NCBI GenBank assembly: GCA_000934665.2
Contig: JYFJ02002820.1
Span: 1 to 50,335, forward strand
Direction of reading: 5' to 3'
DNA from: Catajapyx aquilonaris
Lineage: Eukaryota
DNA: 50,335 nucleotides
Every line of letters begins with the position of its first letter. Positions within the stretch are counted from its first letter, which is position 1. The notes beneath the pieces were generated by a model. The model had not been told where the DNA came from and did no database searches. It worked only from the letters and a program-made list of their open reading frames with translations. Shown here piece after piece: positions 30,460 to 50,335 of the stretch. The position numbers and the translations under genes were made by a program.

Positions 30460-31889
30460 ATGCTGGAAGGACTGGCCACATGGGTGCTCAACAACTACCT
30501 CGGGAGGTACCTGGAGAACCTCAATGCCGCGCAGCTCTCCATCGCACTGCTTCAAGGTTCATATTTGGATTAGTGTTGGGTTACGATGGGCCAAAAAGAA
30601 GCCTGGTGACAGGGCTGGTTATGTGGGAGATCAACTTGCTGTCAAATTACTGCCGTACCATCTACTGATAATGATAGTAATCATCGTCATCATTTTCAGG
30701 AACTAATCATTTTATTGGGAAGGCAAGGGGAAATGAGTATTGTCATGCACAAAATGCAGCCCAAGAATTGGATAGGTTTGAGCAAAACTCAGCAAGAACC
30801 TCGGTTGTAGTCAAATGGCACAGAAGTGTTTCTTCGCAGAGAGGGCAGGATGGAGCGAGACTACCCTTTATACATCTAATAGACAGAATGACCTCAGGCT
30901 TCTACAGAGTGTGCTTATGCAATGTAGTTAAACTGCTGAGTTTGTGTTGGAGTTGTGAATCATAATGAATCACAGTTGGGTGATGCAATATTATATCCTG
31001 TGATGTTAAGATTCAAGGCACTGACTGCACTGGCTGGCATTCCACTAGAAGAGTAATAAATAACATAAAAACAGGCTGATAAGGCATGTATTTAAAATGA
31101 GCACAACTTTTGGTACACCACAGGTGCCAAGTAAATGGGAATGAGGAAAATAAACCTGACATTTTGCATTTTTTTCCATATTGCATCACAAAGACGCCAA
31201 ACAGTATATTGATAAAATTTTATTAAGGAATGACATTGGGTTTTAGTGGTAATGGTGCTAGACCATCAATTTTTTATTGGAGCAACAAGTGATTGTGTAG
31301 AGCAAAGAGATGACAAATTTATGTAATTTATACATTTAAAATGGCTAGTTACAGCAAATTATGTGGAATCCTTATAAAGTAGACTTTAATTTAAAGTAAA
31401 AGTGTCTTCAAGAATGAGAGTATATTGGAATATTGTGATTTTTTTTTTTTTTTTTCATTACCCCACGGGGGGAGTTATACTACTCCTTAGGGGGGATGGG
31501 TTGCCACCTTTGGAATTGTTTTTGGAGCGAGTTTAAGAAGAATCTTAATTAGTATGCTCCAAGGGTGGGTGGGAGGGGATGTGCAAAGTGCAAGTGCAAT
31601 GTCTCTAATCGTCATTTTGTGAACTCCCCCGGGTGGCTTAGTCTGCCGGAAATTGCCACCCGAAACGAAGCCAGAGATGGCCCAACTCTGCACGAAAGAA
31701 GGTGGGAACCCCGGGTGGGGATTGAACCCGGGACCTTAACTTACGTGGGCGCGCGCGTTACCGCGGCGCCACTCCGTCTTCCCGTGGAATATTGTGATAT
31801 TTATTAAACAATTATTAATAAATTTATTGTAAGGAATTTTTTTCAGCATCTGCATGTGTAGTCAACCATTAATAACAATCTTCTAAATC

Positions 31890-43900: not shown

Positions 43901-46900
43901 CTGCCAGGGCACCTTCAGGGTGTGATGCCAACCTAGACATGTCACTAGCCTGCGTGAATTTCATCACATCACGATTCATGTATGAGGGCTACAGTGATGG
44001 TTCCAAGGATGTGGACCTTACTTCTCAAGAAATTCTAGTCATTGACACTCGTGAGAAGGATGCCCCTGTTAACAAGAGGGGCAATGTCTTTACTAACATC
44101 TTGCAGCCTCTCACCAAGATGAGGAATAGAGGGCTTCTGCAAGCTGTGCTGCACTACAGGTTAGCACTACAAGTAGTCATAGACTTACTCGTTAGTTGCA
44201 TTGGCTTCTCCCTCTAAATTAACCTAACTAAACTAACTAAACTAACAACAGTGAGTGCCCAAATGAGTTTCTTGCAATCCATCATCAATATGAAGACCTG
44301 AAATGTAACAATCAGAGTCACTTGAACTGCTTTCATTATATTAGATTTACCCATCAAATGTTAAATGTTTTTTTTAAAAAACCCTGCAAACCTGATGGTA
44401 ACCTGAAACTGCAATGGGCACCATCAATGGTCCAATTCGTCCGTAAAAGTAATTTAAACAACCTTTTCAGATTCACTCCTGAATATACGAGTTTCACAAT
44501 ACTGCTGAACAACATGAGGGTTATGGGAGTGTTTGACTGGTGGCTCACAGTCCATGAATTTGTCATGACACAAGCTGACAACCCTCATCAGAGAAGTAAG
44601 TTTTCATATTATCCATATGCCTTCCATGTCCTAACTGGTTTTTAAAAATGGAACCAGGTACACCAGAGAAGAAAAGCAGTGACAACGAATGGTCCACCAT
44701 GGTGGTTCCCAAGCCAGGCAGCAGTGATCATAGGAAGCCAAACCTTATGGCTGTGTCCTCAGGGATTGTTACCAAAAGAGCCCCTGTTATAGGAGTAGCT
44801 GATTCTCCCTTTGAACTTAAACTCAACATCACTGACTCAGAACTAGTTGTGGTGGAGAGTACTGCCCACTGGGACACCATTGCAATCATACTCAAGGTAA
44901 GGATATCTTGATGAAACCATCCTGGTTTGGAATGAGACCTCCCAATACATCTGAACTGGCTAGTTGTGTTACAATTGAGGCTCTGCATGGATCTTGATTA
45001 TCTGACTGGAGGTTTTTGGCACATCATATATCTACCTGTGGAATAGCTCATTAATCGAGCAAGAGCACCTGCCTTACATGAACTCTAAGAATTACCAGAT
45101 TATGCCGATAATGCAAATGAACCACATAGTGACGATGAAAATTTTCAAGGTCATAAGTTATGAAGGGTTAATAATGCAAGTTAATTTAAAAGTAATGTCA
45201 AAATCATTCTAGTACAACACCTGTATATGGTGCAGGGCCTTCATTGGTCGCATCGCCTTAACTCTGACAAAAAAAGTACCACACTGTCTTGTGATACACC
45301 AGTGACACAGAATGTAAACACACTCTCTATATTACAGTATCATTATTATTCAAGGCTTATTTTTGACGCTTCTCCTACAGAGCACTGCAGTGGTGTCATA
45401 TAGACCAAAACTTCATGAGCATCCTCTGTCGTGCAACTTGAACAATGTGGAGGTATTCTCTTGCATTCTGGGACTGGAGGAAGAAACAGCCCTCTCCATC
45501 ATAGATCCAGTAACAGTCAACATGGAAATATCCACTGCTAAGCAGTCCAGCTCTGAACCAAGGGGAATTCTGGATGCAGCCTCTCCTCCAGGCAGGGATA
45601 TTCACAGGGTGATGGAGATCCAGATGCAACACCTTAACATTCGACTCTCCTACCATGACATGAAAACCTTCCTTCAAATACTGCACAGCCTACCCAAGCA
45701 GGCTAACTGGCAGGGCAGGGGTGATAATGAGGCACGCCCACCTGCCAATGTACAGAGTAGGTTTTTTCTGCAATCAGTGTGTGAGAATGGGGAAAAGTTG
45801 AATTAATTTGTGATGTAACAATTATTTAAACTTAAAATTTTCTTCCTGTTACAGACCAAATGAAGAAGCTGATGGTACTAGGCTTCTCTAGTGAGGACTG
45901 TCTCAAAGCACTAGAGACATGCGAAGGGAGGCTGGACGACGCAGCCCTCTGGCTGACGCAAAATGCTTCTCCTTGCCACTCCCCAGAAGTAGAAGTCGAT
46001 CCAGGAGAGATTGAGTCAGAAAGTGCAATCGGTTTCAAAGCTGTGGAACTCAAGACTAGCTGTGTGACCCTCTACATAATTGATGATTGCAAGGATGCGG
46101 ATGTGCCTCTTCTGGAGTTTAGCCTTACTCACCTCAACTGGCACCAGGACATGGAAGGAAATGGGAGGGCCTCCTGCAACCTGTCAGCTGATTACTACAA
46201 CCGCACTCTCTCTGGATATGAGCCATTTGTGGAGCCATGGATGTGAGTGCAAGACAAATGATACACAACTTTTCACACTACATGTGGGCTTGCCTTGGTT
46301 TCTTTCCAGCTGTAATGTGTCCTGGAATCGGGAGATGACAAGCAGCTCGAGCAGCAGGCTCAGTGTTGATGTCTATGCAAATGACGTCTTAAATATAAAT
46401 ATTACTAGTACACTCCTGGAACTCTACAGAATGGTCAAGGTCAACTGGACTGAGGATTACTATAATTTGTCAGATCGAGAGAGGTTAGAATTTTTTTGAT
46501 CATTAAAAAAATCATATATCAGTTTTAATAAATGCATTGCACCCTTGTAAGGGCTGTTAGCCCATTAGGAAATAAACGTAACCATCAGTGCATTGCAGAG
46601 TTCATTCAGAATTGCAATTTTATTGTTTTGCTATGGTTTTCTTCTAGATATGATGCATCCAAAGCAGTTTTGTCAGGAAACCAGCTTCCCGGCTATCGGC
46701 GTCGCTCCCCATTCATCCCCTTTGCTCTTAAAAATGACAGTGGTTGTCGCCTGTGGTTTTCCACGCTGACTGCAAGTGCCGAGAGCCTCAATGATGTCAG
46801 CCAACGTAGGACATCTGAAGGGAAGTTAGCAGGGCTAACCTGGACACCTGTATCTCCTGGAGAGGCTGTCCCTTTCACATTTGAAGGCAGAGGTAAGCAT

Positions 46901-49356
46901 GTGTGACCCTGGGATTATTCCAGTGCTGCCATTCTTTTGACAGATTTCATTCCCTTTTACCTCCTGCATCAATTATTGTCATACCAGCCCCACCATTTAC
47001 GTAAAGTCACCACTGTGGTTAAATCTCCTTTGTGTTAATTGTTTTTTAAATTGCCGTGTTGTAATATGAAATTGTAAATGCACACTGTGCACTGTGATTT
47101 ATTTGCATAAATTCAACCAGCCCTTCGCCTACATTTCCTTGCATGAAATGCTAATAAAATATTGTTTGGCAGGCAAACTCCGGCATCGTGACAGCCACGA
47201 CCTGAAAGTTCATCAAATTGTGGTCCGAGTGGAGGGCTGGAAGCCCATCTCACCTGTGTCTGTGGATAAAGTTGGAATTTACTTTCGGCAAGCAGCCCCT
47301 GAAGTACAAAAAACTGCTGGCAATGTAAGTCTAAATGGTGAAATGTTTTTCCTTGCTTCATATCGGCTTGAATAATTGCATGGCCATTGAAATTTCAGTA
47401 CTCACAACTGCCCCCGGCCAGAGTGGTAATAGCAGTGACGCTTGAAGGATCTGCCCAGAAATTGGTGACAGTAAGGTCTGCCCTGTTGATCACCAATAAA
47501 CTTGAAGATGTTGTGGAACTCAAGTTGGAAAGTGCTGTGATTCAAACTGGAGGTATTGTGATTACAACTGTTGCAAAATTGTCAATGGGCAATGTTCATT
47601 TATTTTATCTAAATTCTCTCCTTTTTTATTTTATTCACTATGATTATTCACTTTCACAATATTTTTAAATGTATATATTTTTCTCCCCATCACGCTTTCA
47701 TGTGCATGTCTTTGATTCAGTCGAAGCTCTTTTGGATGAAGTGATTGTCGATTCTTTGCTAGCTTTGGATCCATGTGTGGGTGAGTGGATTTTTGTTTTG
47801 TTTTATTTTGCTTAAAGTGTTGAAACGTATTACCTGTTGTTAGTCACCAAATTCTGTAGATGTCTTGTGCAGCATTGCTTCATAGATGAATGTAGTTACA
47901 GTAATGTGTTCCTCAATGCCTTAGTGCTTAGTCAGTTAACAAAAATTGAATTGAACTCTTGTCAGATAAGGGTGCAAATAAAAATTATTGGCTTCAGATG
48001 AGGTGCACATTTTGACTTTTCAAGACCAGGTTAGGTTTTTAAACTACAATTTGAGTTTTAAAATTGCACTCGGTCACTGAAGCACCTGACAGAAGAGACT
48101 CTGTGATTCACTACTTTGACTTAAATTTCCGAATTTTAAATTAATTTGTGATGAGATGTTTTAAGAAGAAAGTTGTAACTTAAATTGCTCATGTTCATCA
48201 AGCAAATGATTTCTCTCAGTTTTTAATGTATACTGACATATGGAAGATTATTTACATTTGTTTGTTTCATTTCAAATAATACTGATATAAGTACTGTTTC
48301 AATTTGACAATGTAACATATTTAAGCTACATACCAGTGCACTCATTATGATTGATAATAATTTTACTGAACAAGAATGAATAATTTTATTAATGCATTGA
48401 GTAATTTTGCACCCTTATTTGCAACACATTCAGTAGTCCTTTTCAACCAAATTGTGACTTACTTGCATAATGTGCATGTCCACCTCTCCTTCCATTATAC
48501 CTTCATTTTATTTTTGTACGCCATTCTGCCCTTACCACAATCCTTCCCAAATATTACCCCAGCATCTCAGGTGATCCGAGTACCCCCGAACTCCACTCAT
48601 GCGGTGTCTCTGTCCTTGGTGACATCCTCCATATGGGCACGGCCCCTGATGTCCAACCAGCCCCACTGCCAGTATGGCTACTGTGACCGCCAGTTACGCT
48701 GGAACCATCTGGTCACAGCAGGCCAGGTTGCTGAGGGGGTCAGGGTCTGCAGTCATGCATCATCTTCCAAGGAGAGACCATACAGGTCATTAACAACTAG
48801 GGGTTCTCAAAGAAACCAATCGCTTGGAGAATAAATGTTAGTTACTGCTACATTGGGCAGAACAATATTTTGTCCAATTCAGTGTTTCTCCATGTACTTA
48901 TGGAATTATTTAAAAAGGAGGGAATAGATTATAAAATGGCATTCTTCAAGGATTATGTTTCTTTGTGAACACCCTCGCCCTTGATCAGTAGTTGCTAACA
49001 GCATCCGTATGTGTGTTTGTGTGGGAATGCTTGGGTAGTTGTCTGGAATTTTCACTCATCTTTCAAAGAGCATCACTGAATGTGAAAGGCAGGTACATGA
49101 GGCAGGAAAAGTACCATTAGGTATTGCTTTCAGATGTGAAAATTATGCAGCTGTATCCAGGTGACAGTGTTCCGGTGCCAATTCCACGTGTTTGGTCACC
49201 TCTGTGGTTCAGGGTCCTAGGGGATCTCGGAGGCACAGGTCAGAAGTGGCAGTTTTGCAACTTGGCCATCTATTGGTACTACACTTTAGCTCCTGGAGAG
49301 GAGCAGAGTGAGCAAAGGTTTTGTCGGCGAGCCGGACACAGGGATGAGCGTTATAG
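30460..49356 (+). CDS. VPS13D: Intermembrane lipid transfer protein VPS13D; about 36 coding exons in the window, 3' part beyond the window
   Basis: Chorein-N start [33 protein letters not shown] (30460-30556), then [14 protein letters not shown] (32280-32470), [19 protein letters not shown] (32839-33276), [23 protein letters not shown] (36475-36665) and [19 protein letters not shown]. The internal UBA domain ([32 protein letters not shown], near 45860) is diagnostic of VPS13D. Downstream: [42 protein letters not shown] and [17 protein letters not shown] (47399-47552). Confidence 0.96.
31500..31783 (-). mobile_element. tRNA-derived SINE in the first coding-region intron of VPS13D
   Basis: Minus strand has A-box-like GTGGCGCCGCGGTAA and B box GGTTCAATCCCC. 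The body shares a 16-bp motif with the SINE at 13.7-13.9 kb. The 3' boundary is approximate. Confidence 0.7.
31891..31948. repeat. (AAT)n microsatellite
   Basis: About 19 tandem TAA units. Confidence 0.95.
47721..47780 (+). CDS. VPS13D: Putative 60-nt in-frame cassette exon of VPS13D
   Basis: TTTGATTCAG acceptor and G|GTGAGT donor; phase 1 at both ends; open frame (V)[19 protein letters not shown]. Confidence 0.55.
48563..48785 (+). CDS. VPS13D: VPS13D mutually exclusive exon A (223 nt)
   Basis: CCCCAG acceptor, AG|GTCATT donor, phase 1 in and phase 2 out. Encodes [29 protein letters not shown]...YCDRQLRW...RVC...ERPYR. Confidence 0.8.
49134..49356 (+). CDS. VPS13D: VPS13D mutually exclusive exon B (223 nt)
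   Basis: CTTTCAG acceptor, AG|GTAAAA donor, phase 1 in and phase 2 out. Encodes [29 protein letters not shown]...FCNLAIYW...RFC...DERYR. Confidence 0.8.
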
Positions 49357-49839
49357 GTAAAATCTGGGTGGGGAAATCTATTTGAGTTGCATTCGGAGCA
49401 TGATTATGTAGTGGACTGACTATGTGAGTTAGATATGCTCCATTATTAGGATGTAAGGAAGGCAATGTAATTATGAGGCCAGGTTCTTAGAATATCAGAG
49501 TTACGGTAGTCTAGTCATAGGCCAGGTATACGTACTGTGAGGAGAAAATGGAACCTGAGCTTGGGAGAAAGAGCACATGGGGTGATGTGTGAGGAAACTT
49601 TCACGAAACTAACCTGTCACGACCAAAAGGCAATTTATGGTAGAAGCAGGGCCAGCCCTAGGCTGGTGTAGGGCCCAGGGGAAGAAGAAAATGTGGGGCC
49701 TATTCTCAATGAGTAAATTTCTATACAACGCCAGTTACGCAGACAATTATTTTGTTGGGCGACTTATTAACGTACCGCCTAATTAATTAGTACTGCGCTA
49801 AGTCCTTTATGCATAGTTATAGGTTAGGTAGTTTTTCGC

Positions 49840-49841
<2 letters not shown>

Positions 49842-49876
<35 letters not shown>
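49842..49876. repeat. (AAT)n microsatellite
   Basis: About 11 tandem AAT units. Confidence 0.9.
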
Positions 49877-49877
<1 letters not shown>

Positions 49878-49949
49878 TAATTGGTGGGGTAATGCTTTCA
49901 CCCATCAGGGTTTATCGCATGGACCTTTATTATTAGCTGTTGGTGTATA

Positions 49950-50150
49950 CAGTGCCGGATCTACGAAATTTCGGAGGGGGGGCAGAAACCTTTCCTGCCG
50001 CCCCCCACCCCCACCCCCGCGGTTTGAAAGTTTGGTTTCATTTTTCTGACATGGATCTTCTCCAGTTTAGGCAGTGGCGCATGCAAAATGTTCTTTTTGG
50101 GGGGGAGCTGGCATGCGAGGAAGCCCGCCGCAGGCGAAAATTTTTGTGTG
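49950..50150. mobile_element. Left part of a hAT-like MITE related to the 8394-8713 element; other end not seen in the window
   Basis: Begins CAGTGCCGGATCT followed by a G run (compare CAGGCGCGGATCC). Contains GCCCGCCGCAGGCGAAAATTTTT near 50123, almost the reverse complement of AAAAATTTTCGGCTGCGGCGGGC near 8607. Confidence 0.55.
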
Positions 50151-50335
50151 TTCAGGGCCACACAAGCTGAGGATGCTAAATTCCTTTCTGCCAGAAAGAA
50201 ATATCGTCTTCAGCGTTGTTTTGCATTTCTGGGAAAGAGTCCCTAAGATGCACTACAGTTTTGACTACCAGTCCAAATAATATACTGTTTGCAGATATTT
50301 TCGTAATGAACGCACGTCTTGTCATTGTCCCGGAC

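Follow-up and report, generated by a model that had tools for sequence, protein, structure and literature searches.

The window analysed here, the whole stretch of 50,335 nucleotides from contig JYFJ02002820.1 of Catajapyx aquilonaris (assembly GCA_000934665.2, forward strand), carries on its plus strand a VPS13D gene in which two neighbouring exons of 223 nt, named here exon A (48563..48785) and exon B (49134..49356), are predicted to be alternatives to each other. Seven full-length orthologues tile the window colinearly in tblastn comparisons, from orthologue residue 1 at position 30460 to position 47572, which corresponds to about residue 3069 of the newt VPS13D protein. The gene thus begins near 30460, and the 30 kb before it in the window contain other sequence. 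The exon at 45836-46246 bears the UBA domain (Pfam VPS13_M, 5.2e-10; UBA_7, 6.5e-5; neither reaches the cut-off set for whole proteins, which is to be expected when one exon is searched by itself), and it has matches to 279 representative proteins (E ≤ 1e-3). The named matches that were looked up for this exon were VPS13D or VPS13D-like proteins (Diaphorina, Frieseomelitta, Pleurodeles, Stegodyphus, Crassostrea and Ptychodera, among others), and the VPS13D-like matches with names span psyllid, bee, newts, spiders, millipede, mite, oyster, snail, tick, flies, mosquito and acorn worm. For the constitutive exons, the closest proteins were a dragonfly model (P0017) and P0003, with identities of 50-68%, so that the proteins searched contained no close relative of the source, an invertebrate. 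The assignment of the gene to VPS13D in the initial annotation was thus borne out by the presence of named VPS13D proteins among the best matches of the UBA exon, and also by the match of the exon upstream of exon A to Pfam VPS13_VAB. Judged by sequence similarity, the gene in the window is an orthologue of VPS13D.

The upstream constitutive exon (47399..47552, plus strand) encodes the first strands of module 1 of the VAB domain, including a conserved Asn (ITNKL), and carries one base over to the following exon (phase 1). It aligned to positions 55-91 of the 570 positions of the VPS13_VAB profile (E 1e-4, 21.4 bits, cut-off 22.6). Its identity to the named VPS13D orthologues at the top of the list was 53-68%, dropping to about 32% in the rows farthest away, and the conserved Asn was found in 11 of the 13 aligned rows. 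The exon is bordered by the acceptor ...gaaatttcag/TAC and the donor GAG/gtattg, its end reading ...CTGGAG/gt at position 47552. Two predicted proteins, P0017 (the Ladona fulva model) and P0004, stop some 15-35 residues past the equivalent of this exon, where the segment encoded by A or B should start; these endings may reflect a break in the gene model or in the contig.

Direct reading of the sequence confirmed the coordinates, the 223-nt lengths, the phases (1 in, 2 out) and the YR endings that the initial annotation had given for exons A and B, both on the plus strand. Each exon is open in one frame out of three, and it is the identical one (offset 2), so that both enter with one base from the upstream exon and leave two bases (AG). 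The peptide of exon A ends in ...SSSKERPY(R) and that of exon B in ...AGHRDERY(R), that is, in both cases in Tyr plus the AG of a split Arg codon. Exon A is flanked by ...attaccccag/ on the acceptor side and by the weak donor CAG/gtcatt, and exon B by ...tattgctttcag/ and the donor TAG/gtaaaa. The distance between the starts of both exons is 571 nt. The intron upstream of A (47553..48562) has a GC content of 0.321, and the intron between A and B (48786..49133) spans 348 nt with a GC content of 0.385. The splice sites of the region are of the ordinary GT-AG kind, and the intron between A and B does not have a U12-type donor. Downstream of B, the portion of the following intron present in the window (49357..50335) contains neither a third copy of the A/B exon nor the next VPS13D exon. 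For the third copy, a search of 1689 six-frame open reading frames (ORFs) of the window with an orthologue profile was negative. For the next constitutive exon, a profile of the following segment gave a best E value of 1.1 in the window, as compared with 22 matches at E < 1e-3 in control loci. Since this profile works in the control loci and is empty in the window, the next VPS13D exon must lie beyond position 50335. Of the exons that would flank A and B, the upstream one lies inside the window and the downstream one outside it, and the orthologues run for more than 1000 residues further.

The length of the exons has direct consequences for the reading frame. Because 223 equals 3 × 74 + 1, the co-inclusion of A and B, or the skipping of both, shifts the frame. 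As had been noted in the initial annotation, including both exons breaks the frame, and we found that when A is spliced to B translation proceeds in frame 1 of B through Arg and nine further residues into a stop, that is, after 10 codons. Altogether, these data suggest, with moderate confidence, that A and B form a lineage-restricted pair of mutually exclusive exons (MXEs) that arose by tandem exon duplication. According to this proposal, the spliceosome would join the exon ending at 47552 either to A or to B, and then to the next exon past the window; a transcript with A plus B would meet the stop 10 codons into B, and a transcript with neither would be frameshifted. Only the single-inclusion mRNAs would encode full-length VPS13D, with the others presumably removed by nonsense-mediated decay (NMD), and the two isoforms would differ in approximately 74 residues of VAB module 1. 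Both exons are presumably spliced, and NMD would police the choice between them. Steric exclusion can be ruled out as the basis of the choice because the 348-nt intron between A and B is too long for it. The classes of mechanisms that ensure exclusivity have been described for human genes, and a frame shift coupled to NMD is among the recognised means of enforcement according to the available text of that survey (PMC5740500).

The same premature stop is open to another interpretation, namely that one of the copies acts mainly as a regulatory "poison" partner, whose co-inclusion would create the stop and, through NMD, lower the output of VPS13D with no second isoform being made. In favour of this idea, reads joining both members are common in frame-incompatible MXE clusters, as reported in the parts of PMC5740500 available to us. 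A poison exon, however, needs no open frame of 73 codons, no residues conserved across the family and no matching phase, and we regard this explanation as highly improbable.

The relationship between the two exons was examined at the protein level. In a BLASTP comparison, the peptides of A and B were colinear and identical at 16 of 71 residues (23%), with an E value of 1e-6 for a single comparison; their divergence is about that of orthologues from different phyla. When both were compared with orthologous proteins (P0036, P0086, P0001, P0092, P0015 and P0026), they landed on the same residues, right after the match of the upstream exon. For instance, in the spider protein P0036 the upstream exon matched residues 1507-1556, A residues 1564-1623 and B residues 1557-1615, and in the millipede protein P0086 the corresponding matches were 2738-2777, 2785-2864 and 2787-2853. 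In a MAFFT alignment, A and B fill the same columns among 33 orthologue segments, and both end exactly at the (F/Y)-R of the orthologues. A profile was then built from these 33 segments, with A and B left out, and run on the 1689 six-frame ORFs of the window. The ORFs of exon A (E 1.3e-14, 50.7 bits, profile positions 2-63) and exon B (E 6.3e-10, 35.7 bits, profile positions 2-68) were the sole significant matches, the next best ORF having an E value of 0.27. The spaced residue pattern that the initial annotation had seen in both exons thus reflects real homology, and the question it had posed, whether the peptides align to the same or to consecutive segments of orthologues, was answered by the three approaches in favour of the same segment. 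The old tandem duplication it had proposed agrees with the homology of A and B at 23% identity over one orthologue segment, and on this evidence we consider A and B to be tandem duplicates of a single ancient VPS13D exon. Other searches were uninformative: exon A found no match among proteins of 129-2000 aa, a protein search with exon B gave no match either, a search for longer proteins with the upstream exon gave a single, insect-like match of no use (P0160), and a scan of metagenomes with exon A alone gave 598 pattern matches, none of which was confirmed.

The features of the A/B pair were compared with those used for the prediction of MXEs. For this purpose, Pillmann et al. 2011 required exons to be of similar length, to conserve their splice sites and reading frame, to be homologous and to be free of in-frame stops, and only 0.56% of the non-MXE exons on the X chromosome of D. 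melanogaster have such features, according to the text available (PMC3228551). The A/B pair shows all of them: equal length, compatible splice sites and phase with no stop, and homology. Furthermore, both copies look maintained as working exons by several sequence measures. Their GC content (0.578 for A, with 0.67 at third codon positions, and 0.516 for B) is exon-like, the neighbouring exons having values of 0.48-0.53 and the adjacent introns values of 0.321 and 0.385. A stop-free frame of 73 codons was found at 5 of 2124 positions of the flanking non-exon DNA. Conservation was scored over 62 orthologous segments, and in 23 columns the residue class is kept in 60% of them or more; of these columns, A and B keep 17 each and 13 are kept by both. 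The 35.7 bits of exon B lie inside the range of 27-75 bits observed for undoubted single-copy exons in other species.

To determine the distribution of the pair, JGI metagenome contigs were searched with the alignment of the upstream exon, which yielded 46 VPS13D-like loci of various eukaryotes; several of these are near-duplicates across samples, and 24 distinct segments entered the phylogenetic tree described below. The single-copy exon equivalent to A/B in the VPS13D of other animals has a size of 208-229 nt and the same phase. Its length is 223 nt in loci L005 and L006, 211 nt in L014, L002 and L012, 217 nt in L011, and 208 nt in L026, L041, L020 and L021, and in all of these it ends in (Y/F)-R with AG/gt at the border. 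In the intron-poor loci L001 (7655-8875) and L010 (1-1119) the equivalent exon is fused to its neighbours, and the segment has the VW / W-x-F/Y / WY(H/Y) signature of exon B. From these comparisons, the exon unit and its phase appear to be ancient.

Several observations weigh against the proposed mutually exclusive use of A and B. Among the 46 metagenome loci, matches to the A/B profile at E < 1e-3 numbered one in 32 loci, none in 14 and two in none, and 21 of the 32 single-match loci have at least 1 kb downstream of the match with no second copy. A single segment was also present in all of the 16 orthologous proteins checked, and in the six sets of isoforms or cluster members that could be compared (14 of the 16 proteins) there were no differences at the A/B segment. 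The pair is thus not independently conserved in other sampled species, and the duplication appears not to be general but, on present sampling, confined to the lineage of the window. In addition, exon A lacks a near-invariant Pro (present in 98% of the orthologue rows) and exon B lacks the Pro of "RP" (95% of the rows). The donor of A, gtcatt, has C at +3 and lacks G at +5. It is clearly weaker than the donors of the constitutive exons nearby (gtaagg, gtgagt, gtaagc and gtaagt), so that A might be poorly used, and this is the main sequence-level doubt about this exon. The donor of B, gtaaaa, is intermediate in strength; the weak and intermediate donors of the pair would also fit regulated exons. 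Moreover, if a cryptic donor at 48803 (GGG/gttctc) were combined with the normal acceptor of B, A and B would both stay intact and in frame. Finally, the case is built on genomic sequence, and A and B are to be taken as predicted alternative exons.

Some of these observations would be expected if one copy were the working exon and the other an unused intronic relic of the duplication: the poor donor of A, the lower score of B on the orthologue profile (35.7 vs 50.7 bits) together with its missing Pro, and the failure to see the pair in any other sampled genome. Against this, at 23% identity both copies keep an open frame, which is rare by chance in this DNA, the exact length, and the terminal Y-R(AG)/gt, and both retain the splice dinucleotides with a polypyrimidine tract, an exon-like GC content and, in each case, 17 of the 23 conserved columns. 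A neutral relic is hard to square with these data, since one of such age should have lost its frame, length, borders and composition, and we consider it unlikely.

The cryptic donor at 48803 bears on a further explanation, in which A and B would both be constitutive and translated in tandem by means of other splice sites. Out of 102 frame-compatible GT/AG pairings, one (donor 48803 to acceptor 49134) keeps both exons whole. This donor is very poor, however, and its position is beyond the Y-R(AG)/gt border that is conserved in A and used by the orthologous exons. Two consecutive matches were seen in no orthologue, the proteins having one domain each in 16 of 16 cases and the loci two matches in 0 of 46, and two copies of a part of one beta-sandwich do not fit the module architecture of the domain. 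We therefore attach next to no probability to tandem inclusion.

The introns around the exons were also inspected. The stretch at 49066-49084, immediately before B, is complementary to two sites and could pair with either, namely 48425-48443 upstream of A (19 nt, 79% complementarity) and 48877-48890 downstream of A (14 nt, 86% complementarity), in a layout that resembles docking and selector elements. The perfect cores of these pairings are 10 and 8 bp long, and a sequence of 2.9 kb should by chance contain about four perfect 10-mers, for which reason no claim is made for competing RNA structures at this locus. The intron upstream of A holds a candidate 60-nt cassette at 47721-47780, an open stretch with the acceptor ctttgattcag/ and the consensus donor /gtgagt that, if included at the phase-1 junction, would lengthen the protein by 20 residues without a change of frame; its peptide found no matching insert in any orthologue by BLASTP, though the length of the orthologues varies at this place. 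The intron after B contains an (AAT)n microsatellite at 49846-49878 and a G/C-rich run (ggggggg...ccccccaccccc) at approximately 49975-50020. Elsewhere in the gene, two distant pairs of similar ORFs were observed (38311-38604/42048-42461 and 38794-39174/42591-42818, with E values of 3e-4 and 5e-6), which are probably internal repeats of the lipid-groove region of VPS13 and not alternative exons. Like these pairs, an N-terminal stretch of the oyster orthologue matches human VPS13C at two places.

To get information on the age of the duplication, a maximum-likelihood tree of the A/B segment was built (64 rows, 68 columns, with many long branches). Its topology was (A,(B,(P0015,P0034,L010,L027,L001))), with support values of 98/82 for B plus the five other sequences and of 97/27 for the node that adds A. 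When A and B were constrained to group together, the log-likelihood fell by 0.37 units (p 0.476 in the AU test), and because of this small cost the tree does not fix the age of the duplication. B shares the signature VW...W-x-F/Y...WY(H/Y) with P0015, P0034, L001, L010 and L027, and A looks like the canonical type. On this basis it could be imagined that the duplication is old, that is, that an ancestor had both flavours of module 1 as alternative exons, and that intron-poor lineages of the L001/L010 kind fixed the B type and others the A type, each flavour corresponding to a different partner or regulatory state of the VAB domain. The organisms of these five sequences are not, by the constitutive exons, the closest relatives of the window, which makes long-branch attraction or convergence as likely as an ancient split, and we regard this scenario as quite doubtful.

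The position of the swapped segment within the VAB domain was deduced from a structural model of the contiguous 373-aa ORF of locus L010, aligned with 17 relatives, which folds with a mean pLDDT (predicted local distance difference test) of 77.8. The best match of this model among solved structures was the crystal structure of the Vps13 VAB domain (7u8t, E 1.7e-15). In the available text on this structure, the domain consists of six modules, and an Asn ends the first strand of every module (PMC8978259). In the model, a strand at residues 62-75 ends in the conserved N75, and the first strand of the next module, at residues 218-230, ends in N230. The residues equivalent to A/B, approximately 106-177 (profile match at nt 322-504 of L010), lie between both Asn residues and cover the strands 107-111, 116-118, 127-132 and 158-167 and the start of the strand 175-184. 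In terms of this model, exchanging A for B would replace about 74 residues, most of the body of the module 1 beta-sandwich, while the module would keep unchanged the strand with the Asn, a second strand and the greater part of its last strand.

This placement bears on the functional proposal of the initial annotation, which held that the swap would exchange part of the adaptor-binding surface, Miro being the adaptor named for VPS13D, and might retarget the lipid bridge to different contact sites. The groove for the PxP adaptor motif is formed by module 6 and the interface of modules 5 and 6 (PMC8978259), and in yeast modules 5-6 are enough for adaptor binding, as stated in the accessible part of PMC7068118. 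The motif reported to bind Miro in human VPS13D is a loop around L2554, described in the text available as "adjacent to the VAB domain" and located before the UBA domain (PMC10897228). The segment of A and B falls in module 1 and hence away from the PxP site and from the Miro loop, so that the proposal is not supported in the form given and is to be regarded as speculation. On the other hand, mutation of the module 1 Asn in yeast reduces adaptor binding only in the full-length protein, which the authors interpreted as a conformational or regulatory role (PMC7068118, from the same accessible part). In view of this effect, an influence of module 1 on the conformation of the domain is possible, and we think it more defensible that the swap would alter the surface of module 1, or the conformation or gating of the VAB domain, than the PxP site.

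The A/B pair can be compared with several known systems. Like the MXEs described by Pillmann et al. 2011 and in the human survey of Hatje et al. 2017, in the parts available of both (PMC3228551, PMC5740500), which arise from tandem duplication and combine frame incompatibility with NMD, A and B lie side by side, are homologous, agree in length, phase and type of splice site, and code for one and the same stretch of the protein, and their joint inclusion shifts the frame. In contrast to those clusters, A and B are unusually diverged (23% identity), are found in one lineage only and are known here from the genome. Within the same protein family, human VPS13B has a pair of homologous, alternatively used tandem exons (cluster 2844 in the supplements of PMC5740500), which a supplement of PMC8373072 lists as a substitution derived from tandem exon duplication and dates to the last common ancestor of vertebrates. 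Unlike A and B, this pair belongs to a different paralogue, and its exons, with 22 and 28 aa, are short and differ in length. VPS13D itself has no occurrence in the available main text and supplements of PMC5740500 and PMC8373072. With regard to the Vps13 VAB domain, with its six beta-sandwich modules and its PxP site at modules 5-6 (structure 7u8t; PMC8978259 and PMC7068118, in the parts available), the fold of L010 that covers the A/B region matches it, and the difference lies in the part that would be swapped, which is module 1 and not the adaptor groove. Literature searches combining VPS13D, VPS13 or CG32113 with mutually exclusive exons or alternative splicing found no account of the A/B event in VPS13D, and no description was found of alternative splicing inside a VAB module. 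The device is a textbook one, and its predicted presence in VPS13D, for which we found no description in the literature, would be of moderate interest for the targeting of VPS13 proteins.

The A/B pair is an ordinary case of a common route by which isoforms are made, and it has no direct bearing on the disease variants of human VPS13D. If both exons are used, a single VPS13D gene would provide two natural versions of VAB module 1. Of the two ends of the adaptor-binding domain, this module is the one understood least, and two natural isoforms that differ at no other place would lend themselves to probing its function.

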